Source: Candidatus Kaiserbacteria bacterium
GTDB lineage: Bacteria > Patescibacteriota > Minisyncoccia > Phycocordibacterales > Phycocordibacteraceae
Direction: 5' to 3'
DNA: 64,000 bases
NCBI GenBank assembly: GCA_023264445.1
Contig: JAHFMN010000003.1
Coordinates: forward strand, 18,421-82,420
Both the position numbers and the translations under genes were made by a program. This document shows positions 1-53,423 of this stretch, piece by piece. Below the pieces are notes generated by a model that saw only the letters and a list, made by a program, of their open reading frames with translations, made no database searches and had not been told where the DNA came from. Every line of letters starts with the position of its first letter. Within the stretch, counting starts at the first letter, position 1.

Positions 1-780
1 CACGAGATCGAACACAATATTCTTTTCGGAAGTCACCGCATTGAGAAAGCTCTGCAAGAGGCCGAACATATCATATATCGCATTGCCGTAGCTGATGCGC
101 TGCACAGCAAAACCATTCCGCTCGAGCATAGCGCGCAGACTTTCAGGCGAAAAATGAAAGAGATGCCGCGGCACATCAAGATGCAGCCAGTCTGCTGTAA
201 ACAGGCGCGCCTGCCAAGAGCGGTAGTTCGGCACTTCGATGACGAGCATGCCATCTTCCCGTAAGAGCTCAGCTATCCGCTTCAAGTACCGTTCGGGGTC
301 CTGCAGGTGTTCAAACGAGTGCCACGAGGTAATGACGTCAAAAGATGCTTCCGTAAAAGGACAGTTCGGAAGCTCATCTCTACAAATTCTCGCCGCGATG
401 TCCGGGGAGAGATGAGCGCCTTGCGCGCGCTCCGTCCCGTATACATCCCAGCCGAGCGCTGCAGCCGCCTTCAGGAACGAGCCATTTCCGCATCCGACGT
501 CCAGAAGCCGGCCCGGCGGGCGCGCCCAGGCGCGCATGACTTTCCGCATCCAGAGGTAGTTGATGAGGCCGCCCATAGCCCCCTTGCGCGAGCCGTAATA
601 CTGGTCAGCATAGTATGCACCGAGCGCCTCCGAAGTGATGTCCGGCTTCGTAACGCCGAGACCGCATAGAGGGCACTCATAGAGCTTAAACTGGTTGCCA
701 GTCCTGTATTCAGGAGCGTCGTAGCTATACGCGAGATCTGCGCGCAAGCATGCCGGACAACGATAGTGAGCATCCATCAT
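1..780 (-). CDS. Class I SAM-dependent methyltransferase with N-terminal Zn-ribbon (CxxC...CPLC); TylCIII-like sugar C-methyltransferase family. Partial: C-terminus lies beyond the window start.
   Basis: Manual translation of the minus strand from ATG at 780 gives MMDAHYRCPACL...CPLCG...GRLLDVGCGNGSF (SAM motif I) with no stop down to position 1. Absent from the ORF track because it runs off the edge. Paralog of the 9282..10253 gene. Confidence 0.7.
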   Translation of the reverse strand, partial: MMDAHYRCPACLRADLAYSYDAPEYRTGNQFKLYECPLCGLGVTKPDITSEALGAYYADQYYGSRKGAMGGLINYLWMRKVMRAWARPPGRLLDVGCGNGSFLKAAAALGWDVYGTERAQGAHLSPDIAARICRDELPNCPFTEASFDVITSWHSFEHLQDPERYLKRIAELLREDGMLVIEVPNYRSWQARLFTADWLHLDVPRHLFHFSPESLRAMLERNGFAVQRISYGNAIYDMFGLLQSFLNAVTSEKNIVFDLV

Positions 781-2216
781 CGTATGCGCTCAAAGAGCGA
801 ACTTCCCTCCATAAATTCCACCTTGCGGTAGGAAGAAGCGAGCACCGATGCATAGGCCGTTACCACGTATCGATTGCCCTCGTCCATGACGAGGAATTTT
901 GGCAGTTCGTTTAACGGGAGTGACAATGCATTCACACCGTGAACTGGGACGCCCGTCATCGAAAGATAGTGGTATCTGCTTTGAGGCGGCACGAGCGACG
1001 CGACTGCCGGGTCGTTTATGATTCCGACTGTATCGGAGCCGAGATGTGCATTCAGGTACGTAGCCGTTTGGAGAGCGGTATCAGAACGGAATACATGCGA
1101 GCTGAAGAATAGTACATACGCCTGCAACCCCACGAGTCCGGCAATACAGAGAGTCGCGTAGATACTTCTACTGAAAAAGTGGACGGAAATGTTTCGTATG
1201 AACACAGGCAGGAGCATAAGAACGCTCAATTCAAGCGGCATCAGGTACCGCAGCCAGCCGGGCGAGCGCAGGAAATAGGCAAAAGATATGATTCCCAGAA
1301 GAGAGAAGAACAGCACTATTCTTTTCTGGAACGGATCCTCTCCTTTGGCGAAGTACCACCCGACTGCGGATACACAAAGAAGGAAGAAGAAATACAGAAG
1401 GGTCGACTCTAAAGGCGCGTGCAGCACATTTGCTACGACGTTGTCGAGCATGGATGCAGAACCGAAGGGATTCTTATAAAAGCCGAGGAGCGAAGCGAAT
1501 ACTCCGGAAGTGATGGGGCGTGGCAACGTAAGTGCAAGCCAGAGAAAGATCGGCAGCGCGTACCCCATACCGAAGCGAATAAGATTGCCGAAGCGTTTTT
1601 CTTTTTGAAAGAAAAAGATATCAGCCGCTGCAGGAATACACAGCCAGAGATAGAGCGAGGGCTTAGACGCGGCAGCAAGTCCGAGCAGAAGGCCGGACGG
1701 AATGAGCCGGCCTTTGAGAAGGCACCACGCGCCAAGCAAGAGAAAGGTGAACCCCGGTATCTCTCCCGTGACCGTACGCCCGTTCGCAAAGAAAGAAGCG
1801 AATGACAGCACGAGCAAACATCCTAGAACAGCCGATCGCGTATCGAAGAATTTCCGGAGAAAGAGGAAAAGAGTGCCGACACCGGCCACACACCATGCAA
1901 GCATGTAGAACCGCGCCACGAAGAAGCTAAATCCGAACACGGCAAATGCAAACGCGAGCGGAAGCGTCACCGGATACCCATTTGAACCGGCTATCACTAC
2001 TGCGTAGGGAGAATACACGCCCGGAGCGACCGAGATATCTAGAACCTGATGCTCCGCAAAGGTGTGGGCGACTTCAATAGCAAGACCCTCGTCATACCAG
2101 AGTTTCGGCCAGGTGGTGAGCACTGGATACGATATGGCGCAAAAGACGATGGTGGCACCAATAAGTGCCCCGATGTACCACCTATCGGGAAGCGCAAACA
2201 TGCGCTTATAGTACAC
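777..2216 (-). CDS. Polytopic GT-C fold membrane glycosyltransferase (ArnT/PMT, GT39/GT83-like)
   Basis: 479 aa, more than 10 predicted TM segments. N-proximal extracytoplasmic loop has a WYDEG (DE) motif typical of PMT/ArnT-type GT-C enzymes. Immediately downstream of a Dpm1-like GT2. Confidence 0.6.
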   Translation of the reverse strand: MYYKRMFALPDRWYIGALIGATIVFCAISYPVLTTWPKLWYDEGLAIEVAHTFAEHQVLDISVAPGVYSPYAVVIAGSNGYPVTLPLAFAFAVFGFSFFVARFYMLAWCVAGVGTLFLFLRKFFDTRSAVLGCLLVLSFASFFANGRTVTGEIPGFTFLLLGAWCLLKGRLIPSGLLLGLAAASKPSLYLWLCIPAAADIFFFQKEKRFGNLIRFGMGYALPIFLWLALTLPRPITSGVFASLLGFYKNPFGSASMLDNVVANVLHAPLESTLLYFFFLLCVSAVGWYFAKGEDPFQKRIVLFFSLLGIISFAYFLRSPGWLRYLMPLELSVLMLLPVFIRNISVHFFSRSIYATLCIAGLVGLQAYVLFFSSHVFRSDTALQTATYLNAHLGSDTVGIINDPAVASLVPPQSRYHYLSMTGVPVHGVNALSLPLNELPKFLVMDEGNRYVVTAYASVLASSYRKVEFMEGSSLFERIR

Positions 2217-2973
2217 GCCCGGACGAGGAGATCAGAAATCGCGCGTCGGTCCTCACATGTGCACGGTGGAGGAGATAGTTCGCAACCACCATGAGCGTCA
2301 TGAGGCCATACTCTGCGCTTTTGAAAAAGCTCGGCGAGAGCGAATCCTTTTCGTAGCGGGTTGGAATGGGGATCTCGGTCATTCGAAAGCCGCCCGAAGC
2401 GATCTGGGCTATCATTTCAGAATCAAAGACGTAGTTGCTTGAATTCAAATGGAACGGGATAGAGCGGAGCATGCTTCCTGCATATGCTCGGTACCCCGTG
2501 TGGTATTCACTCAATTTCAACCGAAACACTAATTCCTCGAACCGGCTAAGCGCGATATTCGCGACAAAACGCCACCACGACATGCCTCCCGCGCGAGCCG
2601 ACTTCTTGGAGTGCATGCGCGAGCCAAAGCAGACGTCCGCCGTACCGTTCACTATCGGCGCGATGATATCGGGTACGAGCGCTGGATCGTATTGGAAATC
2701 CCCATGCACCATGACGATGACGTCCGCGCCACGTGCGAGCGCTTCCGCATATCCCGTTTTCTGCGAGCCGCCGTAGCCCGTGTTTTTCGGATGCGTGATG
2801 AGTACGATGCCGCTCAAGCTCTCTGCGACGGCGAGCGTCGTATCCGTGCTAGCGTCATTGATGACGATGACTTCATCAACGATATCTCGCGGAACAGCCG
2901 CGACGGTCATCGCAAGCGTTTTTTCCGCATTGTAGGTCGGTATCACGACTACTATTTTCTTATTCTGTAGCAT
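2206..2973 (-). CDS. GT2 polyprenyl-phosphate sugar synthase (Dpm1/GtrB/ArnC-like)
   Basis: MLQNKKIVVVIPTYNAEKT...VIVINDASTDTT...VMVHGDFQYDP: GT-A fold with DxD-type motifs. Start chosen at 2973 (alternative 2988). Confidence 0.8.
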   Translation of the reverse strand: MLQNKKIVVVIPTYNAEKTLAMTVAAVPRDIVDEVIVINDASTDTTLAVAESLSGIVLITHPKNTGYGGSQKTGYAEALARGADVIVMVHGDFQYDPALVPDIIAPIVNGTADVCFGSRMHSKKSARAGGMSWWRFVANIALSRFEELVFRLKLSEYHTGYRAYAGSMLRSIPFHLNSSNYVFDSEMIAQIASGGFRMTEIPIPTRYEKDSLSPSFFKSAEYGLMTLMVVANYLLHRAHVRTDARFLISSSGRVL

Positions 2974-2994
2974 GTTGCAGGCGCCCAAACTATA

Positions 2995-4755
2995 TTATGC
3001 TCGCTGCATCTTGGCAAAATAGGAACCGTGGTTCTTGAGCAGTGATTCAGGCGTTCCGTGCTCGACAATGCGCCCATGGCTCACGACGAGGATAGTATCG
3101 GCCTCGGCGACCGTGGAGGGCCGGTGCGCGATGATGAGCACGGTCACCTTGCCGTGCAGCGCGCGGATGGATTCATGGATGAGCTTTTCGGACTCATGGT
3201 CAAGCGCGCTCGTCGCCTCATCCAGGATGAGAAGTGCCGGGCGGCCCGCAAGGGCACGGGCAAGCGCGATACGCTGACGCTGGCCGCCAGAGAGCATGAC
3301 ACCGCGATCGCCCGTTATCGTTTGGAACCCTTCGGGCAGCCCCATGATGAAGTCATAAATGTTGGCTTGCTTCGCGGCATGCTCAATTTCCTCGGTGGTC
3401 AAGGTGTGATTATAAAATCGGATGTTGTCCTCAATCGTACTGTTGAGGAGAAATACGTCCTGCGACACATAGCCGATATGTCTGCGCCATGTTTCAAGCG
3501 AGATGGACTCGCTTGGTACGCCATCGAGGAGTAGTTCTCCCGCGCTCGGTTTGAAGAGCCGTAAAAGGAGATCCGCGACGGAGGTCTTCCCTGCGCCTGA
3601 AGGCCCGATAAGTCCTACCGTCTCCCCTGCACGTATGGAGAAGTCAATGCCATCTAGCACCGGCTTGCCTTCCGCATAGGCGAATGAGACTCCCTTGAAG
3701 GCGAGTTCTTTTTGGAAACTGAAAGAGGAAGTTCCTTCAGACGACTCGCGATGCAGGTCGAACTGGCGCTTGAATGCCGCGATGTTCTCGACGTACGGCA
3801 CGAGCTCGCTCACTGACTGGAGCGCGACTTGGCCGGACTCAAGATAGGTGAATATTTTTTGTATGAGATAGAGTGATGCCGCAAACGAGATGATGTTAAA
3901 GGAGTCCGAATGATACGTGAGAAGGAAGAGCACCATGGCGAGCATGATGCTGACCGGCTGGAAGAAGCTCGTACCGAGCGAATGCACGAGTGCCTGCCGG
4001 ATGGAGAGCGAGCGTAGGTGGTGGATGTGAGAGCTACCGTCGGTAATAGCGGCACGCTCCGCGCCGGCGGCCTTGATGGACTTCATGCCAATGATGTGTT
4101 CAGTGAGAAATTGCGCAAACTGCTTCTCCACTCCCGCCACCTGCCGCCCGATGCGCTGTGCGCGCCGCAGAAACGGCCGAAGCAAGAAGAGGAGGATGAC
4201 GCCGCCGAGAAGCGTGTAGAGCGTGATGCTTGGCGAGATGTTGATGATGACGAGGAGATACATGAGGAAGCCGCTGAAAGACTGGACGATCTGCGCGATG
4301 GTGCCGAGAAGCCCGCTTGTCTGGTGCACGTCCCGCACGAGCGTATTCTGCAGCGTGCCTATTTTCTGTTTCAACGAGAACGACCAAGAAGAAAGCAGCG
4401 CCCGGCGCAAGACATCCGCGCTTTCCTTACCGAGGAAGTCGGCGCTAATCCATCCGCGGATAAAGCCGAACACGACCACCGAAATCGAACGGAGTATGAA
4501 AAGGATAAGTATGAATCCAAGCAGGTAACGGAACGAAAATGGTATGTGCAGGAAGGCAAATAATCCCTGTATGGTCTGTGAGATGAAATCGGTCGCCGGG
4601 GAGCTCGCTCCGGTGAAGAAGCTTATGAGCGGGATGACGGCATTGATGCCGATACCCTCCAAGAGAGAGCTTATAATGCCAAATATGATGAGCGCCACGA
4701 TATGCCAGCGGTAGGCACGAAACGCCTGCCAGAGCGTCGTGAGGGTGTTTTTCAT
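2995..4755 (-). CDS. ABC exporter, fused permease/ATPase (MsbA/type I exporter-like)
   Basis: Six-TM N-terminal domain then Walker A GPSGAGKTS, signature LSGGQRQRIALARAL and Walker B LLILDEATSALD. Start at MKNTLTTLWQ (4755). Confidence 0.85.
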   Translation of the reverse strand: MKNTLTTLWQAFRAYRWHIVALIIFGIISSLLEGIGINAVIPLISFFTGASSPATDFISQTIQGLFAFLHIPFSFRYLLGFILILFILRSISVVVFGFIRGWISADFLGKESADVLRRALLSSWSFSLKQKIGTLQNTLVRDVHQTSGLLGTIAQIVQSFSGFLMYLLVIINISPSITLYTLLGGVILLFLLRPFLRRAQRIGRQVAGVEKQFAQFLTEHIIGMKSIKAAGAERAAITDGSSHIHHLRSLSIRQALVHSLGTSFFQPVSIMLAMVLFLLTYHSDSFNIISFAASLYLIQKIFTYLESGQVALQSVSELVPYVENIAAFKRQFDLHRESSEGTSSFSFQKELAFKGVSFAYAEGKPVLDGIDFSIRAGETVGLIGPSGAGKTSVADLLLRLFKPSAGELLLDGVPSESISLETWRRHIGYVSQDVFLLNSTIEDNIRFYNHTLTTEEIEHAAKQANIYDFIMGLPEGFQTITGDRGVMLSGGQRQRIALARALAGRPALLILDEATSALDHESEKLIHESIRALHGKVTVLIIAHRPSTVAEADTILVVSHGRIVEHGTPESLLKNHGSYFAKMQRA

Positions 4756-4810
4756 AGATGAGTCGATATCCACTATAACCTGCGCCCGCTGACAAAAGAA
4801 ACCGCCCTCA

Positions 4811-5581
4811 CTAGACACGCCCACCAATATGGTGCACGTGCGGAGCAGTAAGTGAGAGGCGCTCGAGCTGGGTGGTTGAACGGGCATTCTTTGATTCTAG
4901 GATGCGTGCAGATCGTTCGTGGCGTTTGATATTCCACCCGTACGTATTGTGGACGAGGTCGCCCTCGCGCACATGCACGAGCTTCGCTGCTGCTTTTCCC
5001 GGCCAGAGTATCTGCTGTGCGGCGATGGTTCCCATCTCCTCCATTCCTGCATTGTCCGGGTCGTTCACCGCATCGGCGGTAAGCACGAAACCGGTATGGA
5101 TAAGGTGTCCGGTCGACCACATCGCGCACGTGTTCCAGGGAATCTGCAGACCGCTCGCCCCTTCCACAAGCACACGCTCCCCGGGCGGCGCTTTAACATC
5201 ATGCCCATCGAGACGTGCACCAACGACGAGCGTTTCGTCGTCAGAATGGGATTGCAGGAGCGACACGAGCGATGGCGTCACAGGATATTCGGTGCTTGTG
5301 AAAAGGAGGTGGGTTACTTGCTTTTCTGCACATTTGAGAAGAAGCGCATTCGGCGCTTGCACCACTCTGCCCCATGGGACGACGGAAAATGCAGTGACGG
5401 TCGGATATTTTTCTCGCATGAAATCATGGCTTCCTGAAAGGTCGGCCTCGGTATTAATAGCAACGAACACCTGTTCCGCAGGGACGACCGCAAGCGCTGC
5501 ATCGACCCAGGTCGCGAGGCGCTGGACATCACCCTTGGTGAGTCCATAGAAGCGCGTTGCAATGCCTAATTTCTGCTGCAT
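4811..5581 (-). CDS. Hypothetical protein; possible nucleotide-sugar-modifying enzyme, family not recognised
   Basis: 256 aa from MQQKLGIATRFYGL. Four-nt gap to the upstream ATP-grasp stop. No recognised motif. Confidence 0.35.
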   Translation of the reverse strand: MQQKLGIATRFYGLTKGDVQRLATWVDAALAVVPAEQVFVAINTEADLSGSHDFMREKYPTVTAFSVVPWGRVVQAPNALLLKCAEKQVTHLLFTSTEYPVTPSLVSLLQSHSDDETLVVGARLDGHDVKAPPGERVLVEGASGLQIPWNTCAMWSTGHLIHTGFVLTADAVNDPDNAGMEEMGTIAAQQILWPGKAAAKLVHVREGDLVHNTYGWNIKRHERSARILESKNARSTTQLERLSLTAPHVHHIGGRV

Positions 5582-5585
5582 ATTC

Positions 5586-6794
5586 CTATTGAACGACAAA
5601 TTCCACGACCTGTACTGCCCTCTCTGCGGCTTCCACTGCCTCCGCGCGCGAGGGTGCAAGCGCTATGACATAGCCCACGCGCGATGGATGATTCACTATT
5701 GCGGGAATTTCATCTCCTACCTGCACCCACGGATCGACTTTTTTGATGAACGGCATATTCCTGGCTTCGGTAAGTCCTCGAATTTCTTTGATGACGCCTG
5801 GGGACGGAAAGAAATACCGCTGCGAAGTTGCCATATGCTTCGTCGGGACAAAACGATTCTGATCAACGCTGTTGCCGACGGTCATATCAATGAGGATATC
5901 CACGATATCAACGCCGGTAGACCACGGTACTTTGTCATAGCAGAAGTTGCCGCCGGAGAGGCGCGCCGCTATTTCAATCACGTACGCCTTGCCGTCGTCG
6001 CCCATTACCATGTCTCCTTTTGCAGGCCCCCAATCAATGCCGAGCGCGCGGACCGCCTTTTCAAACTCTTCTTCAACCAATCTTTTCTGCGCAGGGGGAA
6101 GAACCGTCGGGATATCTCCGCCATCTTCAACGAGATGCGGAGTCGTCTTTTCTACGTTCTCGTAATTGCGGTCAGCAAAGCCGGTGCAATGGAATATATT
6201 GTCGTGCATGATGCCCTCGGTGCTCACTTGGAGCCCGGGAATGTATTGCTCGGCAATCAAGTCTCCGGAATACGAATACTTCCTCGCGTACTCAAATGCC
6301 CACGAGAGGTCCGTATCGGCAGTGATGCGCAGGACGCCGCGTGCGCCGGAATTATCCACCGGTTTCAGCACCACCGGGAAGCCGGCATGTTCGATAAAGG
6401 ACTGGAGATCCGCAAGTGTCCGCACCGATGTGAATTTCGGAATGTTCACCCCGCCGCGTTCAAGTTCTTCTTTCATCTTGAATTTCTGCACGCACGTCTG
6501 CGCGACTGAAAGCGGGATATGCTTGACGCCGAGGTATTCCGCCGCCGCAGAAACGCAATGCGGGATGTCGCTTGCAATGGTCATGACGCCATCAATCTTT
6601 TTCTTGTACCCCTTCAGGAACTCAAGGATAGCCGGTACGTCTCGGGTGCTGACCAGATAGAATTCATCGGCATGCGTGGCACCGGCAGCCTTCGGATTCA
6701 TATCAAACACGACCGTATGTATGCCTTTTTCCTTCGCACGATCAATGGCATTCACTTGTTCTATCCCCGCTCCGAGAATCAGAATGGTTTTCAT
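5586..6794 (-). CDS. ATP-grasp domain ligase
   Basis: 402 aa: MKTILILGAG...VVLKPVDNSGARGV...EQYIPG...YVIEIAARLSGG, the typical ATP-grasp pre-ATP-grasp/central/C-domain layout. Confidence 0.75.
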   Translation of the reverse strand: MKTILILGAGIEQVNAIDRAKEKGIHTVVFDMNPKAAGATHADEFYLVSTRDVPAILEFLKGYKKKIDGVMTIASDIPHCVSAAAEYLGVKHIPLSVAQTCVQKFKMKEELERGGVNIPKFTSVRTLADLQSFIEHAGFPVVLKPVDNSGARGVLRITADTDLSWAFEYARKYSYSGDLIAEQYIPGLQVSTEGIMHDNIFHCTGFADRNYENVEKTTPHLVEDGGDIPTVLPPAQKRLVEEEFEKAVRALGIDWGPAKGDMVMGDDGKAYVIEIAARLSGGNFCYDKVPWSTGVDIVDILIDMTVGNSVDQNRFVPTKHMATSQRYFFPSPGVIKEIRGLTEARNMPFIKKVDPWVQVGDEIPAIVNHPSRVGYVIALAPSRAEAVEAAERAVQVVEFVVQ

Positions 6795-6795
6795 A

Positions 6796-7536
6796 CTATG
6801 AGAACAGCATACCGCCGTTTACGTTCAGCGTCTGTCCGGTGATGGATGCAGCAGAGTCCGAAGCGAGGAATGCGACTGCTGCGGCGATCTCCTCTGGTGC
6901 AGTCAATCGGCCGATAGGAATCTGCGCGGCCTTCTGCTTCCCTTCTTTTGAACCAAGCTCTTTTTTAATCATGTCCGTCTCGACGAGACCGGGAGAGACC
7001 GCGTTGCTCGTAATGCCATCTCGCGAAAAAAGCTTCGCGAGCGAGTGCGTAAAGTTGATGAGTCCTGCCTTCGCCGCGGCGTAGTGCACCTGGCGCATGC
7101 CGCCCCACTGCCCGCCGATGGAGACGATATTGATGATGCGGCCCCAGCGCTTCTTCCGCATAGCAGGTACGGTCTCTTGAGCGACAATGAATGCGCCGCG
7201 CAGATTCGTCTCCAGCATGCGGTTCCAGTCAGCATCCGTGATGCGTTCAAAGGGCTTCTCGTCCGCGATGCCGGCGTTATTGACGACGATGTCCGGAGTC
7301 TTCCCCCATTGCTTTCGTACTGCAGCAAGCGCTTTCTTTATTGAAGCTCGACTGCGGATATCGACGCGCACGGCAAGCGCTTCCGGATACTTTTTCTCCA
7401 ATTCCTCCGCACCGTTCTTATGGAGGTTATACCCGCAGGCAACGGAATATCCCTCTGCAAGCAGCTTGCTCGCGACGGCATGTCCGATGCCGCGGCTTGC
7501 GCCGGTGACGAGTGCCAGCTTAGTGTTCGTTTTCAT
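6796..7536 (-). CDS. SDR family oxidoreductase (FabG-like ketoreductase)
   Basis: TGASRGIG cofactor motif, NNAG, catalytic YAAAKAG (YxxxK). Confidence 0.85.
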   Translation of the reverse strand: MKTNTKLALVTGASRGIGHAVASKLLAEGYSVACGYNLHKNGAEELEKKYPEALAVRVDIRSRASIKKALAAVRKQWGKTPDIVVNNAGIADEKPFERITDADWNRMLETNLRGAFIVAQETVPAMRKKRWGRIINIVSIGGQWGGMRQVHYAAAKAGLINFTHSLAKLFSRDGITSNAVSPGLVETDMIKKELGSKEGKQKAAQIPIGRLTAPEEIAAAVAFLASDSAASITGQTLNVNGGMLFS

Positions 7537-7539
7537 AGG

Positions 7540-9285
7540 TTAATCGAACGATGACTCGGAATTCATGTCGTTCAGTTCTTTGCCGCCCATGAGCATAGGC
7601 AGGATGTCTTCCTGCGGATCTATCTCGCAGTGGATGAGCACCGGGCCTTTTCGTTTGAGCGCCTTCGTTATCTTTTCCTTTGCCCCGCGAACTGAAGGGA
7701 CGCTCACGGCATCGATGCCGTATGCGCGCGCGATGTCCGCGAAGTTCGGGTTGCGCTTACCGCCGGTTGCAGGATGCGACTTCCAGTTCTGTCGCTGGAA
7801 TTGCGCCACGATATTAAGAGCATGATTATCGAGGACAAGGATCTTGATATCGAGATTCCGCTCTGCGATAAATGCGAGCTCTTGTATGTTCATCTGGAAG
7901 CTCCCATCGCCCACTACGCAGAGCACCTTCGTGCGCGGGGCGGCCATCTTCGCGCCTATGGCGGCAGGAAGATCGAATCCCATCGTCCCATGACCGGAGG
8001 AAGTGAGGAGCTGACGTTCGGGATGCGAAAACGAAAAATGTCGTGGCACCCACATCTGGTGCTGGCCGACGCCGGTGGCAACGATGACATCCCCGGCGAG
8101 AGCATCGCTTGCCCATTCGATGACATGCTGCGGCTTGAGGTATGCGCCGCGCTGCTGCTCTGGCACGAGGGCGTGCGTCTTTTTCCATTCTTCAATGCTT
8201 GTGAGCCATGCCGTAGTTTTTCCTTTCGTTCGAGCCTTCTTGGAGAGAAGCGCATTGAGTGCCGTGAGTGCCTCGCCCACATCGGCATGTATTTTCAAAT
8301 CAAGCGGTACGCGGCTGTGGTCGAGCTCTTTTTCGTCCACATCTATGCGCGCAACCTTGCCTTGCGGCGTCATCCGCGCGGGCACACTGCCGGTCTGGCG
8401 GACGTGGAGCGTCGTCCCAAGCGCGATGACAAGATCAGCGTTGTAGAGAGCAAGATTCGCATACCGGCTTCCCACGTAGCCGCAGAGGCCGAGCGACAAC
8501 GGTTTATCGGAAGGGTACGCGCCCATGCCAGGGAGACTCATGGTCACTGGTATCGAGAAACGGTCTGCAAGAGAGCGCAATTGGCGCTCCGCGCGCGCCG
8601 CAATGACTCCGCCTCCGGCTAGAATGACCGGACGCTCGGCCTTCACTATCCAGTCCGCAAGCGTTGCCAGCTGTTTCTTCGGCAATGGCAGGCTTTTTGA
8701 TTTCTTTTTCGCAGGAGCTCGCACGATGCGAGGCGAAATGACGGCACGCTGGACGTTCATGGGAAGATCGACGACGACCGGACCTCCTCGCCCCTCTCGA
8801 GCAAGTGCAAACGCTTGCTCCATGACAGAGGGGAGTTCAGTTGGCTCTGTCACGAGCCATGCGGCCTTCGTGATCGGAGTGAGCACGTCAACCGTATCCA
8901 CTTCTTGAAAACCGCGCTGTTTGACGGGAATTTTCCCGCGCAAGTCGCTTGTCCCTACTTGTCCGGTAAGCACCACCATCGGCACATTATCGAAATACGC
9001 ATCTGCTATCGGCGTCACGGCGTTCGTCACGCCCGGACCTGAAGTGACCATGTAGACCGCCGGCTTCCCAGTCACCTTCGCATAGGCAAGAGCGGCAAAA
9101 CCCGCACCTTGTTCATTCTTCGGACAGATGATTTCTATATCCGTCTCCTTCTCTACTACGTCCAAAATAGGCCCAATGGTCCCGCCCGGATAGATAAATA
9201 CTTTCTCCACGCCATTGCGCTTGAATGCTTCTACGATCGCGTGCGCGCCGAACTGGTCGCGCTTTTGTGTGTGTTTCTTTTTCAT
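7540..9285 (-). CDS. Thiamine-pyrophosphate enzyme of the acetolactate synthase large-subunit family (YerE-like candidate)
   Basis: 581 aa with Pyr domain, central domain and TPP-binding domain (GDGSFQMNIQELA...NN TPP motif). ATGA overlap with the downstream Zn-ribbon methyltransferase. Confidence 0.8.
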   Translation of the reverse strand: MKKKHTQKRDQFGAHAIVEAFKRNGVEKVFIYPGGTIGPILDVVEKETDIEIICPKNEQGAGFAALAYAKVTGKPAVYMVTSGPGVTNAVTPIADAYFDNVPMVVLTGQVGTSDLRGKIPVKQRGFQEVDTVDVLTPITKAAWLVTEPTELPSVMEQAFALAREGRGGPVVVDLPMNVQRAVISPRIVRAPAKKKSKSLPLPKKQLATLADWIVKAERPVILAGGGVIAARAERQLRSLADRFSIPVTMSLPGMGAYPSDKPLSLGLCGYVGSRYANLALYNADLVIALGTTLHVRQTGSVPARMTPQGKVARIDVDEKELDHSRVPLDLKIHADVGEALTALNALLSKKARTKGKTTAWLTSIEEWKKTHALVPEQQRGAYLKPQHVIEWASDALAGDVIVATGVGQHQMWVPRHFSFSHPERQLLTSSGHGTMGFDLPAAIGAKMAAPRTKVLCVVGDGSFQMNIQELAFIAERNLDIKILVLDNHALNIVAQFQRQNWKSHPATGGKRNPNFADIARAYGIDAVSVPSVRGAKEKITKALKRKGPVLIHCEIDPQEDILPMLMGGKELNDMNSESSFD

Positions 9286-10253
9286 ATCGCTTCTCGTTTC
9301 CGCGCGACCCAGAAAATCCCGTTACCGGGCAACGCGAATGTCAGTATAAGGAAATTGAGGGGTTTGTATATCACGTAGCGCTTCAAGAGGGTCAATATCC
9401 GGTATAACCCGAGAAGGGCCTTTTTCGTTACCGTGTTCCCTTGCCTATCGATGAGCCGGTTCAGGCGGCTGCGGACGCCGAAACAGAGCGTCGGGGCAGC
9501 ATAGAGGGGGATGGTGCCGATAGAGAGGATGTCGAAACCAGAGCTCTCAAGCAGCCGCGTGAGCGCCGGCACGGTGAAATAATTGAGGTGCTCCGGCGGG
9601 ATGAGGTGATACCACTTCCTTCCGCGAAGCCGCGCGTATACGCCGCCGAAATTCGGCACGCTCCCGACATAGAGGCCGCCCGGGACGAGTCTATGCGCGA
9701 CTTCGCCCACATGCTCTCGCGGCTCCCGCACATGCTCAAGTGTCATGATTTCAGTTATGACGTCGAAATCATGAACGGCAACGTCCTCAATAGTTCCGGT
9801 CGTGATATCTACTCCTAAATGCTTCGCTCCGATGCGCTTGGCATCCGCATCCATATCCACGCCGTGCGCATCGAATCCGCACAGTTTTGCGGCATAGCAC
9901 ATGAATCCGTGGCCGCAACCGACGTCAAGAAGCCGCTTCTGGCCCGATGAACGGTACGGTTCTATAAGGGAAAGCAGAGTGAGGTTATCTTCTATGACGC
10001 TCTTGTTCGTATCGATGAAATCCTTCGCATCTCCGTGCTCATAGATATTTGATTTTGTCCTGCTCTCGCGATTCGCAGAGTAAAACTCAGCGAGTGCCGC
10101 GGCAGAAGGTAGAGGAGATACGGTCGCGAAGCCGCATGAGGCGCAGGTGATGAGGTCGTATTGCTGATTGTCGATTCCCGTAATCCCTTCGTAGGTCAGC
10201 CTGAAGTCGCCCCCAGAACACACAGGACAGACCATGGGATAGGTCCGGCTCAT
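9282..10253 (-). CDS. SAM-dependent methyltransferase with N-terminal Zn-ribbon (TylCIII-like sugar C-methyltransferase family)
   Basis: MSRTYPMVCPVCSGG...CASCGF then LLDVGCGHGF SAM motif. The long 5' ORF extension overlaps the upstream gene, so the start was set at 10253, 8 nt after the upstream stop. Confidence 0.7.
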   Translation of the reverse strand: MSRTYPMVCPVCSGGDFRLTYEGITGIDNQQYDLITCASCGFATVSPLPSAAALAEFYSANRESRTKSNIYEHGDAKDFIDTNKSVIEDNLTLLSLIEPYRSSGQKRLLDVGCGHGFMCYAAKLCGFDAHGVDMDADAKRIGAKHLGVDITTGTIEDVAVHDFDVITEIMTLEHVREPREHVGEVAHRLVPGGLYVGSVPNFGGVYARLRGRKWYHLIPPEHLNYFTVPALTRLLESSGFDILSIGTIPLYAAPTLCFGVRSRLNRLIDRQGNTVTKKALLGLYRILTLLKRYVIYKPLNFLILTFALPGNGIFWVARKREAI

Positions 10254-10260
10254 CGCGAAG

Positions 10261-11514
10261 CTAGCGCTTGCAGGCGCGAAGCGCCAAGTCTGCCTGGCGC
10301 ACGGCATTCTTCCGCAGGTGCGGAAGCTTCTTTTCAATAGTCGCAATGACGTTCTCCCGGTCATCCACGATCGCATCGAAATTCTTGCTAAGCGATTCTT
10401 TCGTCCAAAACTCCGGTTCAATGAGATAGCCCCCGAGCCAAATCTCATCAAATGCGGGCCGGACGTGCCAGCTCCCGCCAAGCGGCAACACGGGAACCTT
10501 GTGCACGGCGGCAAAAATAGCGGAGTGGCGGCGATTCGATACATGCGCCCAGAGCTTCGGGAAAATCGAGAGGATAGCGTTCAGCTTCACGCGATCCTCC
10601 AAGCAGTGGAAGGCGTTCTTATGCTTCATCCGCTTGCGTATGTCGTGAGCGATCGGACGATCATCTTCCATCGCGTGGTCGATGTCGTAGGTGCAGTTCG
10701 GTATGGAGAGGATGACTGCGTCATGTGTTTCAATGATGTGGTCGCAGAATGCCGCAAGTTCATCCGCTGTTGTTCCCCAGAAGCGTTCGCTCCACTGCCA
10801 ATAATTGTGGCGGATATTGAATCCGATGACGCGCTTCCCTTTCGGCAGCTGTGCAAAAAACTTTTTGGCCGCTGGAGACATATCCTTCAGCGGGACTGGA
10901 TTCAGCGCCCATGCGGTATCGGAGACGACAACGCAATTGTCAGTCCTGATGCCAAGCTCATGGAGCCGCGTAAGCGAGAAATCTTCCCGAAGCGTGACGA
11001 GTGCCGCATTTTCAATGCAATATTTCGTCACCTCCTTTGCATACGATGAAATGAGCTTCGAACCCATATGGATGGAGTACAGCATGACCGGCGTGCCGAC
11101 GAACTTAGCATGCGTAATGAGGAGCGCGGCATAGGAAGCAAGGCCGCGATTGAAGGAAAGCGTTATCTCCTGGAACGGATCGCCGCCGATGATGAGGAGA
11201 TCCGATTCGCGGATAATGGCGTCGAGTGCGTGCAGATGGCCGGTCGGGTCGTTCTTATTGAGCCCGTTGAACCATCTCCCTTCAGAGGCGGCTTTCGTCT
11301 CGTGCTCGAGCCCGACGACGACTCGGTCGCATCCATATTCTTTTGCGAGCCGCTCGTTCTTATGGCGGGCGACCCAGGTGATGTGGCAGTTCGGCTCGCG
11401 AACGCGCAGTTCGCGGATGAGCACCGAAAGCAGCGTCTCATCTCCGGCATTCTCAATGCCGTACACGCTCGTGCCGACGATAGTTATCTTTTTCCGCTTC
11501 TTGGAGGTAGCCAT
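10261..11514 (-). CDS. Polysaccharide pyruvyl transferase (CsaB/WcaK family)
   Basis: 417 aa; N-terminal GTSVYGIENAGDE motif and overall PS_pyruv_trans-like architecture. Confidence 0.65.
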   Translation of the reverse strand: MATSKKRKKITIVGTSVYGIENAGDETLLSVLIRELRVREPNCHITWVARHKNERLAKEYGCDRVVVGLEHETKAASEGRWFNGLNKNDPTGHLHALDAIIRESDLLIIGGDPFQEITLSFNRGLASYAALLITHAKFVGTPVMLYSIHMGSKLISSYAKEVTKYCIENAALVTLREDFSLTRLHELGIRTDNCVVVSDTAWALNPVPLKDMSPAAKKFFAQLPKGKRVIGFNIRHNYWQWSERFWGTTADELAAFCDHIIETHDAVILSIPNCTYDIDHAMEDDRPIAHDIRKRMKHKNAFHCLEDRVKLNAILSIFPKLWAHVSNRRHSAIFAAVHKVPVLPLGGSWHVRPAFDEIWLGGYLIEPEFWTKESLSKNFDAIVDDRENVIATIEKKLPHLRKNAVRQADLALRACKR

Positions 11515-11535
11515 AAATAAGAGGGTGCCGGCTGC

Positions 11536-12786
11536 TTAATGCTTCATAAGCAGATCACGTACAGCGTCGGTAGCATACGCGCATTTTCCTTCCTGCACAA
11601 GCGCACTCCGATGAACGTGTTCCGCATCCCACCCGGCGAATGCATCCGCGAGATGGGTGAGCGATGTATCCGAAAAAAGGCGATCGAATGATTTCTCATC
11701 TACGAACTCTTTCGGCGCCATGCCCAAGCTCCGATACACCTTGCCGACATGATCCTTCTCGCCGAAGAGATAGAAAGGAACCTTGAGGAGAGCCGCATAA
11801 ATGCCGCTGTGCCGTCTGTTAGACACGACATATTTTGCGTGTCTGATGCAGTAGAGAAGCTCCTCGCTTGAGAGATAGAAATCGATCGGCACGATGCTTT
11901 CCTTTTTCTCACAATGCTCGTATATCTCGTGCTGGAAGTTGATGTCGCTCTCCCAATAGTCATCCAGTTCGTATGCGCAGTGAGGAACGAGAAGGACCTT
12001 GCATCCGTAGTGTGCGGCAAGCCGATCCGCGTATGCGGCAAATTGCGCGGCATATGTTTTGGAAGTGGCGTCATTCCAGAGCCAGTAATACCCGCGCACG
12101 GTGAGTGCGATGTACTCACCGGAGGAAAGGCGGGAAAATACCTCCGAAAGTTTCTTCGACTCTATGGGCTTCGCATGCCGCAGAAGGGCGAACCCGCTAT
12201 CCGCAGAAGAAACTACCTTCTCCGATGCTGTCCCGTACGTCTGTATGAGTTCGTCTTTCGTATCGTCCTCGCGCGTCGTTATGACGTCGGCATTGTCCAG
12301 GCAGAATTTCGTGAGCGCAATGCCGTATTCGGACGTCGGTCGGCGGCCGAGATGGATGCCGAAGAGGATGACTTTCTTCTGCAGGTATTTCGCGAGCGTA
12401 ATGAGATTCGCCGTATATGGCAATATCCCGCGAAAGGGCTCCGACGCCATATTGGTATTGGAATCGTCAAATGGGTCCCCGCCGATCATGAGCGCATCGG
12501 AACTTGCGATTTCCTCCCGAATAATCCGCAGATGCTCCGTAGAATCACCGGCATTAAATCCGTGGAATCGCTTGCCGGCGCTTTCCGCTTTTGACGGGAA
12601 GTCCAGATTCCGAACGCTGCGGACGCCAAATTGCGCCTCCACCTCTTTCCCTGGATGGCGGCAGATGAGTGTGACATCAAGATGAGGCATAGCTTCTCGC
12701 ATCCCGCCAAGAAATGATTGGAGCATGGAATCATCGCTTATATTCTTGAGGCCGTAAACGCTTGCGCCCGCTATGGATAATTTCAT
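11536..12786 (-). CDS. Polysaccharide pyruvyl transferase (CsaB/WcaK family), tandem paralog
   Basis: 416 aa; GASVYGLKNISDD and IGGDPFDD motifs collinear with the preceding gene. Confidence 0.65.
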   Translation of the reverse strand: MKLSIAGASVYGLKNISDDSMLQSFLGGMREAMPHLDVTLICRHPGKEVEAQFGVRSVRNLDFPSKAESAGKRFHGFNAGDSTEHLRIIREEIASSDALMIGGDPFDDSNTNMASEPFRGILPYTANLITLAKYLQKKVILFGIHLGRRPTSEYGIALTKFCLDNADVITTREDDTKDELIQTYGTASEKVVSSADSGFALLRHAKPIESKKLSEVFSRLSSGEYIALTVRGYYWLWNDATSKTYAAQFAAYADRLAAHYGCKVLLVPHCAYELDDYWESDINFQHEIYEHCEKKESIVPIDFYLSSEELLYCIRHAKYVVSNRRHSGIYAALLKVPFYLFGEKDHVGKVYRSLGMAPKEFVDEKSFDRLFSDTSLTHLADAFAGWDAEHVHRSALVQEGKCAYATDAVRDLLMKH

Positions 12787-13957: not shown

Positions 13958-14575
13958 TTATGCCGCGCGCTCCTGTTTGTCGTGCGCCGCCGCAGAATGA
14001 TAGGTGCCTGACTTGATGGCCTCGATGCCGCGCGCCTCGGCCGCAAGACGCTCTTGATACGCTCCAGTCTGTTTGACTGCATCAAATGTTTTCTGGAAAT
14101 CAGGATTATTCTCGACAAGCACCGACTCCGCAGAGATAAACTCCGGCTGTACGGCTGGCTTCACGACATGCTCGCAGAACGTGCGCAATCGCGGGATGTG
14201 ATACTCGTTTGCGACGATGAGCACGCGCGACCATCCTTCCTTCATTGCAAGCGCAAGCGATTCCTCAAGCTGGGTTCGGCTTGTTTCCGATTTTTCCTCA
14301 AGCACGATGCTCTCGCGTGCGACGCCAAGCCCGATGAGCTCGTCTGCCGCAATGCGTGCGTGCGTCGGGAGCTCGTTTCCGCGCCTTGATGTCGTAACAA
14401 TGACGGCATCCGGGAATCGCCTTGCGAGAATCGCTGCTGCCTTGATTCGTGCGTGGCCGCCAAGCGTTCCGAACGCATCTCGATCTTCGTAGGAGGTTGA
14501 ATGCCACGCTCCGGCGCGAAGTACGGAACCGGATGTGGGGATGATGATTGCGTCGGGAATCATGACTGTTTCCAT
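13958..14575 (-). CDS. DUF218 (YdcF/SanA/ElyC family) protein
   Basis: 205 aa; IIIPTSGS...VTTSRRG...EEKSETSRTQLEES...IVANEYHIPR matches the DUF218 pattern. Confidence 0.55.
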   Translation of the reverse strand: METVMIPDAIIIPTSGSVLRAGAWHSTSYEDRDAFGTLGGHARIKAAAILARRFPDAVIVTTSRRGNELPTHARIAADELIGLGVARESIVLEEKSETSRTQLEESLALAMKEGWSRVLIVANEYHIPRLRTFCEHVVKPAVQPEFISAESVLVENNPDFQKTFDAVKQTGAYQERLAAEARGIEAIKSGTYHSAAAHDKQERAA

Positions 14576-16224
14576 AACATTGGATTCACTATCTCACGGC
14601 CGATGCCCTGAAGGCGAGCTCTGATTGCTTCAATGAAACCGTCGGGGACGCTTGCACGCGCAGATGCAAGATTCCCTTCAAGCTGTGCGAGCGTCTTTAC
14701 GCCAAATACGACACGCGCGACCGAAGTAGCATGTAATGAGAAAAGGAGCGCCGCCTCCATCTGCGAGAGATTGAACTCTCGTGCAATGCGTATGAATTCT
14801 TCAAGATACGGCCGTGCGCCCGCGATGTTTGCCGGCAATTGTTCGGGACTCATGAGCAATACGCCCTGTAGAAAAGGGCTCCGCGCAAACACAGTCGTTC
14901 CCTGCTCTTTTGCCTTTGGCCAGAAATCAGTCGCGTCTAAGCGCTGGTCAAATGCGTTGTACGGCACTTCCACGCAATCGAGGCCCTGGCGCACTGCTTC
15001 AAGCGCTTCGTCCTCGTCATATACGGAGACGCCGATCCGCTCAGCAAGGCCATCTTGCTTGATAGCGCGCAGGGCATGAAGCGCATCCTCTCGAAAAACA
15101 TACCGGGAGTTGTTGAGCAGGTAGCAGGAGAGCCGATTAAGCTTGAGCCGGCGCAAGGTCTGCTCTACATCGGCCCGTATGATTGTGGCGGCATCTACTT
15201 CTCCAGCGTGCTCACCAAGCGTGCGGGGTCCGAGTTTGGAAAGTACGCTGATTTCCCCAGCGACATTGCATGTACTCACCCATTCTCCGAGAATATCCAC
15301 TGCATTCCCGTAATCACCCGCTGTATCGAAGGTAGTGATGCCTGCGGCATATGCAGCATCCAGAATGGCGAAAGATTCTTCTTTTGTCGGCTGACCGACG
15401 TCATCTAGTCCATACGTCTTTCCGAGCTGAACGGTCCCGAGCGTTAATCTCTTCATGAGACCTTTCCAGACTTCGTCTTTTTTCTTCGTCTTCGCGAGGC
15501 CTTCGTATCCGGTCCCTCCTTTATTTATTTCCAGAAGTCCCGGCTTACGCGCAAGAAGTGCAAGGATATCGTCTTTGCCGAAGACAGGGTTTGCCGGGTA
15601 TAGCTCCTCAAATATCTTCGTCGCAAATTCGAAATCTTGCTCCGTGTCCACCGACCAATGCATCGCTGAATCATCACGTTCGCCCACCGTCCATGGCAGT
15701 CCATGGAATCGCTCTGGACGGTTCTTGAAATACTGCGCGAGATGCTCGCGCTCGGAGGGCAGCCGCCCGTTCTGCGCCGCTTCCTCAAGCGCGGAGAACG
15801 CAAAGATATCGGTATCAAGCCCTTCGGGATAATTCGCTGGCGTACCTGCATACGCGAGCGGATCGTGTGCATCGATAAAATGCCGCGTCGCCTCGTCAAT
15901 CACGGATGGGTCGTGAAGAACGCAATCTCCCGTGAGGCAGACTACGACATCCGCATCTATCTCTTTCGCCGCACGGTACACGCGATCAAGCACATCGTCC
16001 TCGCTTCCGCGGAAAACGCCGACACCAGTACGGGTAGCAAGCTCGGCGACTGCATCGTCTCTTGATTTTTCTGATGTCGCCACGATGATATGGTCAATTT
16101 CTTTTGCACGCTTCACGCGCTCGAGCATGCGCGCAAGCATCGGCTCTCCAAGAATCGGCTTCAGCACCTTGCCCGGCAACCGCGTCGAGCCCGTCCGTGC
16201 CTGGATGATTGCAACGGCCTTCAT
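14560..16224 (-). CDS. CMP-nonulosonic acid synthetase-like cytidylyltransferase (PseF/LegF/SpsF family) fused to an aldo/keto reductase domain
   Basis: N-terminus MKAVAIIQARTGSTRLPGKVLKPI (CTP_transf_3). C-terminal ~300 aa has AKR features (GITTFDTAGDYGNA...). Confidence 0.75.
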   Translation of the reverse strand: MKAVAIIQARTGSTRLPGKVLKPILGEPMLARMLERVKRAKEIDHIIVATSEKSRDDAVAELATRTGVGVFRGSEDDVLDRVYRAAKEIDADVVVCLTGDCVLHDPSVIDEATRHFIDAHDPLAYAGTPANYPEGLDTDIFAFSALEEAAQNGRLPSEREHLAQYFKNRPERFHGLPWTVGERDDSAMHWSVDTEQDFEFATKIFEELYPANPVFGKDDILALLARKPGLLEINKGGTGYEGLAKTKKKDEVWKGLMKRLTLGTVQLGKTYGLDDVGQPTKEESFAILDAAYAAGITTFDTAGDYGNAVDILGEWVSTCNVAGEISVLSKLGPRTLGEHAGEVDAATIIRADVEQTLRRLKLNRLSCYLLNNSRYVFREDALHALRAIKQDGLAERIGVSVYDEDEALEAVRQGLDCVEVPYNAFDQRLDATDFWPKAKEQGTTVFARSPFLQGVLLMSPEQLPANIAGARPYLEEFIRIAREFNLSQMEAALLFSLHATSVARVVFGVKTLAQLEGNLASARASVPDGFIEAIRARLQGIGREIVNPMLWKQS

Positions 16225-17548: not shown

Positions 17549-18229
17549 TCATGCGCCGGGGCGGTAACCGCCACCGATTACTTTCTTGTAGAGCGTCGCG
17601 GCGGCGCGGAAGTCATCCCGGGTTTTCGCTGTTGCATGCTTCTTTGCATCTGCCGTATAGGTATATACCCGCTCAACGCGGATATAGTTGCCGCTTGCTT
17701 CGAAGAGTGCCCCGTAATCCGCTTTATACGTGAAGACGCCGGGGCGATAGCGATACGGATTCTTGCGGGGTTCTCGAGGCAAGAAATCGCAGATGATGAG
17801 GTAGCCGCCGTCTGTAATAGCACGGTCTATTTCAGCGACAGACTGAAGAAGCGTGTCACGCGAGACCCAATGAAAGGTGAACACCGCAAGAGCCAGGTCA
17901 AACGAAGCGTCCTTGACCGGAAGTTTCGCGGCTACGCCGCGCTTGAGTTCTATGCGAGGAAATTTTTTCTTGCCGGCAGCGACAGCAGACGCAGACGGCT
18001 CCACGCCGACATACTGCGCGCGCGGACGCGCGCGACGCATGGCTTCAAGCCGCCAGCCGTTTGCGGCCCCGACATCAAGCACGCGCTTCGGATGCAACCG
18101 GTGCTTCAGGATGAGCTTCTCAACGAGGTCGCTACGCATCTCTCGTGCTTCGGGCGTAAGCGCATCCGCATTGCGCGCGTACCATGCATCAGCTTCTTTT
18201 TTACTGAAAATGTCGTCTTGGTTTTTCAT
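17549..18229 (-). CDS. Class I SAM-dependent methyltransferase
   Basis: RVLDVGAANGW motif I, 226 aa. ATGA overlap with the upstream PseC-like gene. Confidence 0.75.
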   Translation of the reverse strand: MKNQDDIFSKKEADAWYARNADALTPEAREMRSDLVEKLILKHRLHPKRVLDVGAANGWRLEAMRRARPRAQYVGVEPSASAVAAGKKKFPRIELKRGVAAKLPVKDASFDLALAVFTFHWVSRDTLLQSVAEIDRAITDGGYLIICDFLPREPRKNPYRYRPGVFTYKADYGALFEASGNYIRVERVYTYTADAKKHATAKTRDDFRAAATLYKKVIGGGYRPGA

Positions 18230-26256: not shown

Positions 26257-26279
26257 TACGAGGTAGAATACAGCGGAAG

Positions 26280-34199: not shown

Positions 34200-34682
34200 A
34201 TGGACCCCATCCTGCAGTTATGCAAGAAGTTCCTGGAAATGCGCATCGTCCGCACGCTCACGGTGGGAGTCATTGCGGTTACCGTGCAGACTATAGTGTT
34301 CGAACTCCTTGCGGTGTACCTGCGGATTCTTCCTCCCAGCTCCGCCGTGATCATCGGCGCGGAAGTCGCTATTTTGACGAACTTCTACCTGAACAACCGT
34401 TTTTCTTTCGGCGACCGAAAACATGATCTCCCGCTCTTTTCACGCCTCGTGCGCTTTCATCTCGTCGTAAGCGGCTCTGTATTCTTGCAGTGGCTCTTCG
34501 TCTTCCTTGTCGAACGACAGACGTCCGATTGGCTTTTCATCCACGCTGCCTATGCAGCCGGCATTATTCTTGGCTTCTTCTGGAACTACACTTTCTACCT
34601 TCTTTTTGTCTGGCGGCATGTCCCGCCGCAAGCGGAAGATCAATCCTTGAGCCGATACAATTCAAACCGGCCGTCGCTATAG
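34200..34682 (+). CDS. GtrA-family flippase-like protein
   Basis: 160 aa, 4 TM. Positioned beside a GtrB-like GT2 and a GT-C transferase, the classic three-component Gtr layout. Confidence 0.7.
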   Translation: MDPILQLCKKFLEMRIVRTLTVGVIAVTVQTIVFELLAVYLRILPPSSAVIIGAEVAILTNFYLNNRFSFGDRKHDLPLFSRLVRFHLVVSGSVFLQWLFVFLVERQTSDWLFIHAAYAAGIILGFFWNYTFYLLFVWRHVPPQAEDQSLSRYNSNRPSL

Positions 34683-53417: not shown

Positions 53418-53423
53418 ACGGGG

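Follow-up and report, generated by a model that had tools for sequence, protein, structure and literature searches.

Two short zinc-ribbon methyltransferases in glycan gene neighbourhoods of a Candidatus Kaiserbacteria bacterium

In a 64,000-nucleotide stretch of a Candidatus Kaiserbacteria genome (GenBank assembly GCA_023264445.1, contig JAHFMN010000003.1, positions 18,421 to 82,420 of the forward strand; hereafter the window) we analysed two genes, MT1 and MT2, whose products are predicted to be methyltransferases that use S-adenosylmethionine (SAM). Both belong to one long co-directional run of minus-strand genes, and a preliminary description of this DNA regarded them as paralogous enzymes of the TylCIII type, that is, NDP-hexose C-methyltransferases. 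The features of the two genes are listed below. Conservation refers to two alignments, A1 (54 sequences, MT2 and MT1 branches) and A2 (41 sequences, MT1 branch), and the residue pairings refer to the NDP-hexose C3-methyltransferase TcaB9.

1..780, minus strand: MT1, zinc-ribbon class I SAM methyltransferase; residues 1-260 of 319 are visible in the window
664..759, minus strand: MT1 zinc ribbon, Cys8/Cys11 and Cys36/Cys39; cysteines invariant or nearly so in A2
481..507, minus strand: MT1 SAM-binding motif LLDVGCGNG, residues 92-100; D94, G96, G98 and G100 invariant in A2
163..180, minus strand: MT1 LDVPRH motif, residues 201-206; invariant in A2, with His206 pairing with TcaB9 His225 in the profile alignment
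9282..10253, minus strand: MT2, zinc-ribbon class I SAM methyltransferase of 323 amino acids, from the translation
10134..10229, minus strand: MT2 zinc ribbon, Cys9/Cys12 and Cys37/Cys40; kept in 51-53 of the 54 sequences of A1
9906..9932, minus strand: MT2 SAM-binding motif LLDVGCGHG, residues 108-116; D110, G112 and G116 invariant in A1
9588..9599, minus strand: MT2 PPEH motif, residues 219-222; H222 invariant in A1, the Glu221-His222 pair matching TcaB9 Glu224-His225
9297..9434, minus strand: MT2 long amphipathic C-terminal helix (274-305) and terminal beta-strand (312-319), from the secondary structure of the model

The reading frame of MT1 is free of stops throughout 1..780 on the minus strand, and its translation carries MMDAHYRCPAC, YECPLCG and RLLDVGCGNG in that order. 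The window edge truncates its C terminus, and the final 59 amino acids, the hydrophobic C-terminal helix among them, lie beyond the window start; the complete protein (P0032, 319 amino acids) is 100% identical across the 260 amino acids visible here. MT2 (9282..10253, minus strand) reads MSRTYPMVCPVC, then TCASCG and RLLDVGCGHG. Its mechanical open reading frame (ORF) reaches 10544, but this upstream extension overlaps the preceding pyruvyl-transferase gene, and the homologues begin at or just after the ATG at 10253. A second possible start at 10235 would give 317 amino acids, as in P0001.

The preliminary description held that in both gene products a zinc ribbon precedes a class I SAM motif, and this is borne out by the translations and by the two alignments. 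All four cysteines occur in 51-53 of the 54 sequences in A1 and in 40-41 of the 41 in A2, every exception being a gap, so the CxxC...CxxC arrangement is a feature of the family and not a chance pattern. Both alignments also show invariant Asp and Gly residues in the SAM motif, an invariant E-H pair and, further on, an invariant His, and the Pfam model Methyltransf_23 (PF13489) scores 111.4 and 76.6 bits for MT1 and MT2 against a gathering threshold of 27. Structure models of the two proteins are alike in ending with a long helix and a terminal strand (helix 271-298 and strand 303-310 after the core in MT1). By sequence, both proteins are true SAM-dependent methyltransferases and belong to a single, very large and uncharacterised family whose members are about 320 amino acids long. 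These consist of a four-cysteine zinc ribbon at the N terminus, a Rossmann core of the Methyltransf_23 type and a C-terminal part made of a long helix and one beta-strand; the Tyr, Glu-His and His residues of the core are invariant or nearly so across the family.

In a full-library search, 24,263 cluster representatives (50% identity level) match the family profile at E ≤ 1e-30. The best 150 of them are nearly all 300-340 amino acids long and align to the profile between about positions 5 and 311; because these share the short form from end to end, the three-part short architecture is the norm in a very large family. Where members carry a name, it is 'class I SAM-dependent methyltransferase' or a generic UbiG-type label only. 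Detectable relatives of MT2 number about 30 at E ≤ 1e-3, the close ones being 41-72% identical and all about 320 amino acids long. MT1 and MT2 themselves share 28% identity over 245 residues including the zinc ribbon (E = 8e-30), which upholds the earlier suggestion that the genes are paralogous and marks them as paralogues of old divergence. A recent duplication of the two genes was rejected on account of this low identity and because far closer relatives of each exist elsewhere. Fusions and tandem duplications of the methyltransferase core also occur (L013 6657..8219 and L012 7560..9329, both minus strand; P0152, P0153 and P0158), among them one fusion of a family 2 glycosyltransferase (GT2) with a methyltransferase that has no zinc ribbon and several proteins of 570-700 amino acids with two copies of the core.

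The likeness to TylCIII extends to part of the protein. As the preliminary description had it, the first two domains follow the same arrangement, but the third domain (PF08484, Methyltransf_14, about 160 amino acids) is missing, the zinc-binding domain PF08421 (Methyltransf_13) is unmatched and the length is wrong: 319 and 323 amino acids for MT1 and MT2, compared with about 390-420 for enzymes of the TylCIII/TcaB9 type. The Pfam search proposed there, for PF08421 together with Methyltransf_13/14, returned neither PF08421 nor PF08484 at E ≤ 1 for MT1 and MT2; full-length MT1 (319 amino acids) has no match to either at E ≤ 0.01, and the precomputed domains of 31 MT2 homologues and of the best 120 MT1 homologues include neither. 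The same search applied to a 393-amino-acid TylCIII-type protein encoded on a metagenome contig (L009:2654-3835) detected PF08421 (2.4e-14), PF13489 (2.7e-16) and PF08484 (3.1e-36, residues 238-388), so the missing domains are not due to low sensitivity; neither MT1 nor MT2 has a counterpart of the 238-388 domain. In MT2 the C-terminal helix and strand sit where the C-methyltransferase domain would be, and there is no PF08484 match there. NCBIfam offers no equivalog for either protein, every match falling far below its cutoff, and single-sequence searches of the Protein Data Bank (PDB) return generic methyltransferases (UbiG and the uncharacterised 3cc8), with TcaB9 appearing only at E ~ 0.006. 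With generic best sequence matches and an absent C-terminal C-methyltransferase domain, the TylCIII assignment does not hold. Since the PF08484 domain is missing, we place MT1 and MT2, on these profile searches, outside the TylCIII-type C-methyltransferase family.

TcaB9 appeared strongly only when the family profile and fold comparison were used in place of a single-sequence PDB search. Against the PDB, the family profile gives 3cc8 (2.7e-26), TcaB9 (1e-19), KijD1 (7e-18) and MtmC (6e-15). The TcaB9 alignment covers residues 49-255 of 416, equivalent to profile positions 29-235, and takes in the second CxxC (RCDSCE in TcaB9), the linker and the Rossmann core up to IYDEHFFLFS. Foldseek ranks MtmC, KijD1 and TcaB9 at the top by a narrow margin, a fold comparison of the models makes TcaB9 the best structural match for both MT1 and MT2, and hhalign of the family profile with the three-domain protein of L009 (2654-3835) gives 97.8% probability, restricted to residues 41-240. 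The zinc ribbon and core of MT1 and MT2 are thus homologous to domains 1-2 of the NDP-hexose C3-methyltransferases (TcaB9, KijD1, MtmC and TylCIII). The probed residues of TcaB9 were taken from the titles of mutant PDB entries, the SEQRES numbering being offset by +2, as seen from the Y222F entry; we take His225 to be the catalytic residue. The equivalents are as follows.

TcaB9 Y76: Y58 in MT2, Y57 in MT1; invariant or nearly so
TcaB9 H181: H174 in MT2, H158 in MT1; invariant
TcaB9 H225: H222 in MT2, H206 in MT1; invariant
TcaB9 E224: E221 in MT2, R205 in MT1; kept in MT2 only
TcaB9 Y222: P219 in MT2, V203 in MT1; not kept

The NDP-hexose C3-methyltransferases (TcaB9, 3ndi; KijD1, 5t64; MtmC, 4rv9; TylCIII; domains PF08421, PF13489 and PF08484) share with MT1 and MT2 an N-terminal zinc domain with four cysteines and, after it, a SAM domain of the Methyltransf_23 type, together with the equivalents of Tyr76, His181 and His225 and, for MT2, of Glu224. 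MT1 and MT2 differ from them in having no PF08484 domain and no PF08421 match, in length (about 320 versus about 400-420 amino acids), in a C terminus made of a long hydrophobic or amphipathic helix and one strand, and in the loss of the Tyr222 equivalent; identity is 14-18%. The best sequence-level PDB match, 3cc8 (BCE_1332 of Bacillus cereus, a 230-amino-acid uncharacterised 'putative methyltransferase'; 2.7e-26), shares the LEH and His-containing post-core motifs with the family but has neither the zinc ribbon nor the C-terminal helix and strand, and the likeness gives no functional lead. Because equivalents of H181 and H225 also occur in 3cc8, a protein without a zinc ribbon, these residues mark this type of core and not C-methylation. 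UbiG (TIGR01983; PDB 4kdr, 5dpm), the best NCBIfam match, has the same Rossmann core and SAM motifs but lacks the zinc ribbon and comes from another genomic context; MT1 and MT2 score 42.8 and 44.1 bits, under half the NCBIfam cutoff of 102.95.

The C-terminal helix differs between the branches. It is strongly hydrophobic in the MT1 branch (for example VLTILFFIPAGVLAGILWL), where the last 90 residues of 37 of 41 members include a run of 19 residues with Kyte-Doolittle hydropathy ≥ 1.6, and more amphipathic in the MT2 branch.

MT1 is the last of three overlapping genes, the other two of which encode a small GT2 and a membrane glycosyltransferase of the GT-C class.

777..2216, minus strand: polytopic GT-C glycosyltransferase (PMT_2); Pfam PMT_2 31.5 bits against a cutoff of 26.1, about 8 hydrophobic segments
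2206..2988, minus strand: small GT2 of 260 amino acids, in the size class of polyprenyl-phosphate-sugar synthases; Pfam Glycos_transf_2 6.7e-22

The GT2 gene (2206..2988) comes first and overlaps the GT-C gene (777..2216), whose stop overlaps the MT1 start by 4 nt (ATGA); we infer that MT1 is translationally coupled to both. On the 3' side of MT1, beyond the window, lie a Wzy_C/TPR protein gene and MurB. On related contigs of the Candidate Phyla Radiation (CPR) the Wzy_C/TPR gene directly follows an ABC exporter, so GT2, GT-C and MT1 behave as an inserted three-gene module. The overlapping GT2/GT-C/methyltransferase triad recurs in L009 and L011, and on L009, an unrelated metagenome contig, the real PF08421, PF13489 and PF08484 enzyme noted above (2654..3835) lies directly upstream of the triad. 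A scan of the region 1..12000 found promoter and terminator sites no more numerous than in shuffled sequence, as would fit a single long operon.

Ten neighbourhoods with Pfam annotation, drawn from different lineages, were compared. Nine contain a GT2 of 250-306 amino acids within two genes of the methyltransferase, and in eight the methyltransferase adjoins a PMT/PMT_2 gene or an unannotated protein of 480-540 amino acids with 7-9 predicted membrane segments. A metagenome scan returned at least 597 relatives. We retained 80 loci, 31 of them with at least 900 bp on both sides. In these 31 the same GT2 subfamily occurs in 7 and a polytopic protein within 2.6 kb in 17. Across the 80 loci phmmer and an iterated HMM found a single GT-C neighbour, these proteins being too divergent for sequence search, and a crude count of hydrophobic segments was used instead. 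The association of the methyltransferase with GT2 and GT-C is recurrent, not universal.

Three-component extracytoplasmic glycosylation systems (a GT2 polyprenyl-phosphate-sugar synthase, a flippase and a GT-C; Gtr-type and pentofuranose systems) likewise combine a small GT2 and a polytopic PMT_2-type GT-C, and the genes predict such a module here, with both in one operon with MT1. A GT2 paired with a GT-C that draws on a lipid-linked sugar donor is the hallmark of these systems; those described have a flippase and no methyltransferase component. A lipid-linked sugar donor can be altered before transfer in such systems, as in the epimerisation of a lipid-linked Ribf donor (PMC11127046), and AglP is a methyltransferase of an archaeal lipid-linked glycan pathway in Haloferax volcanii (PMC3871713). 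AglP and WbdD of Escherichia coli O9a perform SAM-dependent tailoring of surface glycans assembled on a lipid carrier, but the analogy with MT1 and MT2 is functional only, their architecture being unrelated: a zinc ribbon is lacking in both, and WbdD additionally contains kinase and coiled-coil domains.

MT2 lies in a different setting, among genes for a nonulosonic acid.

7540..9285, minus strand: acetolactate-synthase-like thiamine diphosphate (ThDP) enzyme; 528 bits against a TIGR00118 cutoff of 538, its start overlapping the MT2 stop by 4 nt
10261..12786, minus strand: two tandem polysaccharide pyruvyl-transferase-family genes directly upstream of MT2 (Pfam PF04230); order kept in L001, L003 and L005
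12793..23571, minus strand: pseudaminic-acid-type nonulosonic acid genes, from Pfam and NCBIfam

The last of these intervals encodes a NeuB/PseI-like synthase, a DUF218 protein, a fusion of a CMP-transferase with an aldo-keto reductase, a class III aminotransferase, a 226-amino-acid methyltransferase, PseC, a second DegT-family aminotransferase, a GFO/IDH oxidoreductase and a PseB-like dehydratase. Of the NCBIfam models, the one for PseC is matched above its cutoff (476.6 bits against 423.5) and the one for PseB falls narrowly short (384 against 408), while NeuB and PseI stay below theirs (268 and 253). A CTP_transf_3 domain is present, and no PseG- or PseH-type equivalog was identified. Because PseC passes, PseB is a near miss and the synthase is NeuB/PseI-like, we call the predicted pathway around MT2 pseudaminic-acid-type.

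The order of this block is retained gene for gene in independent groundwater CPR contigs, including metagenome-assembled genomes (MAGs) labelled Ca. Kaiserbacteria and Ca. Saccharibacteria: PseC, a 220-amino-acid methyltransferase, class III aminotransferase, CMP-transferase/aldo-keto reductase, DUF218 and NeuB, followed by two pyruvyl transferases, MT2, the ThDP enzyme, a short-chain dehydrogenase/reductase (SDR), an ATP-grasp protein, a protein of unknown type and the ABC exporter. The MT2 orthologues of these contigs are 50-69% identical to MT2, and such conservation makes MT2 a fixed step of the pseudaminic-acid-type pathway. A literature search on nonulosonic acids in Patescibacteria found nothing relevant.

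Several details of the cluster are worth recording. The interval 5586..9285 (minus strand) holds the acetolactate-synthase-like ThDP enzyme, a FabG-like SDR and an ATP-grasp protein of the L-amino-acid-ligase type, a set conserved in CPR contigs; its presence hints that the nonulosonic acid carries an unusual side chain, either N-acyl or branched. The tandem pyruvyl-transferase genes, about 416 amino acids each, are mutually divergent, and the pair is kept in all related contigs. At 14560..16224 (minus strand) a CTP_transf_3 CMP-sugar synthetase domain is fused to an aldo-keto reductase in one 554-amino-acid ORF, a fusion also seen in L005 (519 amino acids). In L003, a Ca. Kaiserbacteria CG10 MAG, the MT2 orthologue is broken across four reading frames (9950..11011) and the CMP-transferase/aldo-keto-reductase gene is in two pieces (3975..5682); these splits may be assembly frameshifts or gene decay.

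With moderate confidence, we read MT1 and MT2 as membrane-proximal glycan-tailoring methyltransferases, MT1 working with the GT2/GT-C module and MT2 within the pseudaminic-acid-type pathway. Both would tailor cell-surface glycans at the cytoplasmic face of the membrane, an association suggested by the hydrophobic C-terminal stretch in most MT1-branch members and by the long helix in both models. MT1 would most likely act ahead of the GT-C, methylating a lipid-linked glycan or a polyprenyl-phosphate-linked sugar that the GT-C then uses outside the cell, and MT2 would be a dedicated step of the CPR-conserved nonulosonic-acid pathway, methylating either the sugar or a side chain made by the ThDP, SDR and ATP-grasp enzymes. 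We assume O-methylation as the default for both enzymes; C-methylation of a keto intermediate is possible, and might be likelier for MT2 than for MT1 because MT2 keeps the Glu-His pair of TcaB9.

Several observations pull the other way. Limited literature searches found no characterised member of the two-domain family and, on the mechanism of TcaB9, nothing of use beyond a sentence in a review, which leaves gene neighbourhood as the guide to substrate and regiochemistry. O-methylation is favoured a priori, and the shared Tyr, His and His are equally compatible with C-methylation. No GtrA-like flippase was found beside the MT1 module among the ORFs of at least 200 amino acids scanned with Pfam, and the GT2/GT-C association is absent from roughly half of the well-flanked metagenome loci, in counts made without a matched background. 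The models suggest that the terminal strand packs onto the catalytic domain, which would rule out a simple membrane-spanning helix anchor, and the hydrophobic helix might then serve as a lid or as a dimer interface.

That both proteins are nonetheless TylCIII-like NDP-hexose C-methyltransferases, placing a methyl branch at the carbon beside the 4-keto group of a nucleotide sugar, we consider unlikely. TcaB9 as best structural match to both models, MtmC and KijD1 at the head of the Foldseek list and three of five probed TcaB9 residues (Y76, H181 and H225) near-invariant, with E224 in MT2 too, speak for it, as do the 4-keto sugars to be expected in the cluster from its PseB-like dehydratase and GDP-mannose-4,6-dehydratase-like genes. 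Yet PF08421 and PF08484 stay unmatched at E ≤ 1 when the control gives 2.4e-14 and 3.1e-36, both proteins are about 80-100 amino acids shorter, with the helix and strand replacing the entire third domain, and all listed homologues have the short form. Of the shared Tyr, His and His, the H181 and H225 equivalents recur in the zinc-ribbon-less 3cc8, the best sequence match, and L009 encodes a real three-domain C-methyltransferase beside its MT1 homologue, so the two are not interchangeable. Less probable still is that MT1 and MT2 are housekeeping methyltransferases (quinone or UbiG-like, lipid, protein or RNA) merely located in a glycan cluster: UbiG is the best NCBIfam match and the PDB matches include UbiG, cyclopropane fatty-acid synthase and tRNA methyltransferases, but the UbiG scores are 43-44 bits against a cutoff of 103, both genes overlap glycan-gene neighbours by 4 nt in the long co-directional operon, and the neighbourhoods are conserved across lineages.

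For MT2 the alternative to a sugar substrate carries somewhat more weight, although we still think it rather improbable: the enzyme would methylate, at O or C, an acyl or keto-acid block made by the ThDP enzyme and the SDR, which the ATP-grasp ligase would then join to an amino group on the nonulosonic acid. In its favour, the MT2 stop overlaps the ThDP gene start, the order MT2, ThDP enzyme, SDR, ATP-grasp is invariant in related contigs, the ThDP enzyme scores 528 bits on the acetolactate synthase model and the ATP-grasp protein has an L-amino-acid-ligase C-terminal domain; SAM-dependent C-methylation of 2-keto acids is established chemistry for class I methyltransferases. The basis of this alternative is gene order alone, however; two pyruvyl-transferase-family genes adjoin MT2 just as closely, and the tie of the MT1 branch to GT2 and GT-C points to carbohydrate substrates.

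Beyond glycan tailoring by these two enzymes, we put forward tentatively, as a possibility we would not bet on, that zinc-ribbon methyltransferases of about 320 amino acids form an unrecognised and very widespread membrane-associated class, an extra component of GT2/GT-C systems that would methylate the polyprenyl-phosphate-linked donor on the cytoplasmic side and thereby supply surface glycans with a sugar that is already methylated. On this view the NDP-hexose C3-methyltransferases would descend from the same lineage as a three-domain branch, having acquired a nucleotide-sugar-binding domain.

The wider locus is rich in methylating enzymes, which bears out the mention of a radical SAM methylase and two FkbM enzymes in the preliminary description; its gene content includes four class I methyltransferases, two FkbM-type enzymes and one B12 radical SAM enzyme. 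Besides MT1 and MT2 these are:

17549..18229 and 25555..26376: two further class I methyltransferases
26280..26984, plus strand: FkbM-type methyltransferase
39364..40197, plus strand: FkbM-type methyltransferase
40215..41711: B12-binding radical SAM enzyme

Three ORFs of the glycan region (4811..5659, 19373..20431 and 34640..36421, all minus strand) have no Pfam or NCBIfam match. The first two have conserved counterparts in the syntenic CPR contigs (against L001 and L003, E 1e-115 to 1e-145). Adjoining the glycan region, 52032..55190 (minus strand) encodes a lamin-tail-domain/PKD protein and an ATPase resembling type IV secretion coupling proteins (TrwB/TraG). The window also holds a complete bacterial 16S rRNA gene at 59638..61105 (minus strand; 1352 bits, model positions 1-1533), followed by tRNA-Ile(GAT) at 59295..59372 (minus strand); the mechanical ORF 57983..59389 overlaps this tRNA, so its true start lies further downstream.

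A zinc ribbon and a class I SAM motif are insufficient to call a sugar C-methyltransferase; the PF08484 domain must be present, and a TylCIII-like label on MT1 and MT2 would predict branched-chain sugars that are unsupported. The MT2 cluster, with its acetolactate-synthase-like enzyme, is conserved in ultra-small CPR bacteria. The repeated pairing of the methyltransferase with a small GT2 and a GT-C suggests a route by which methylated sugars may reach extracytoplasmic glycans.

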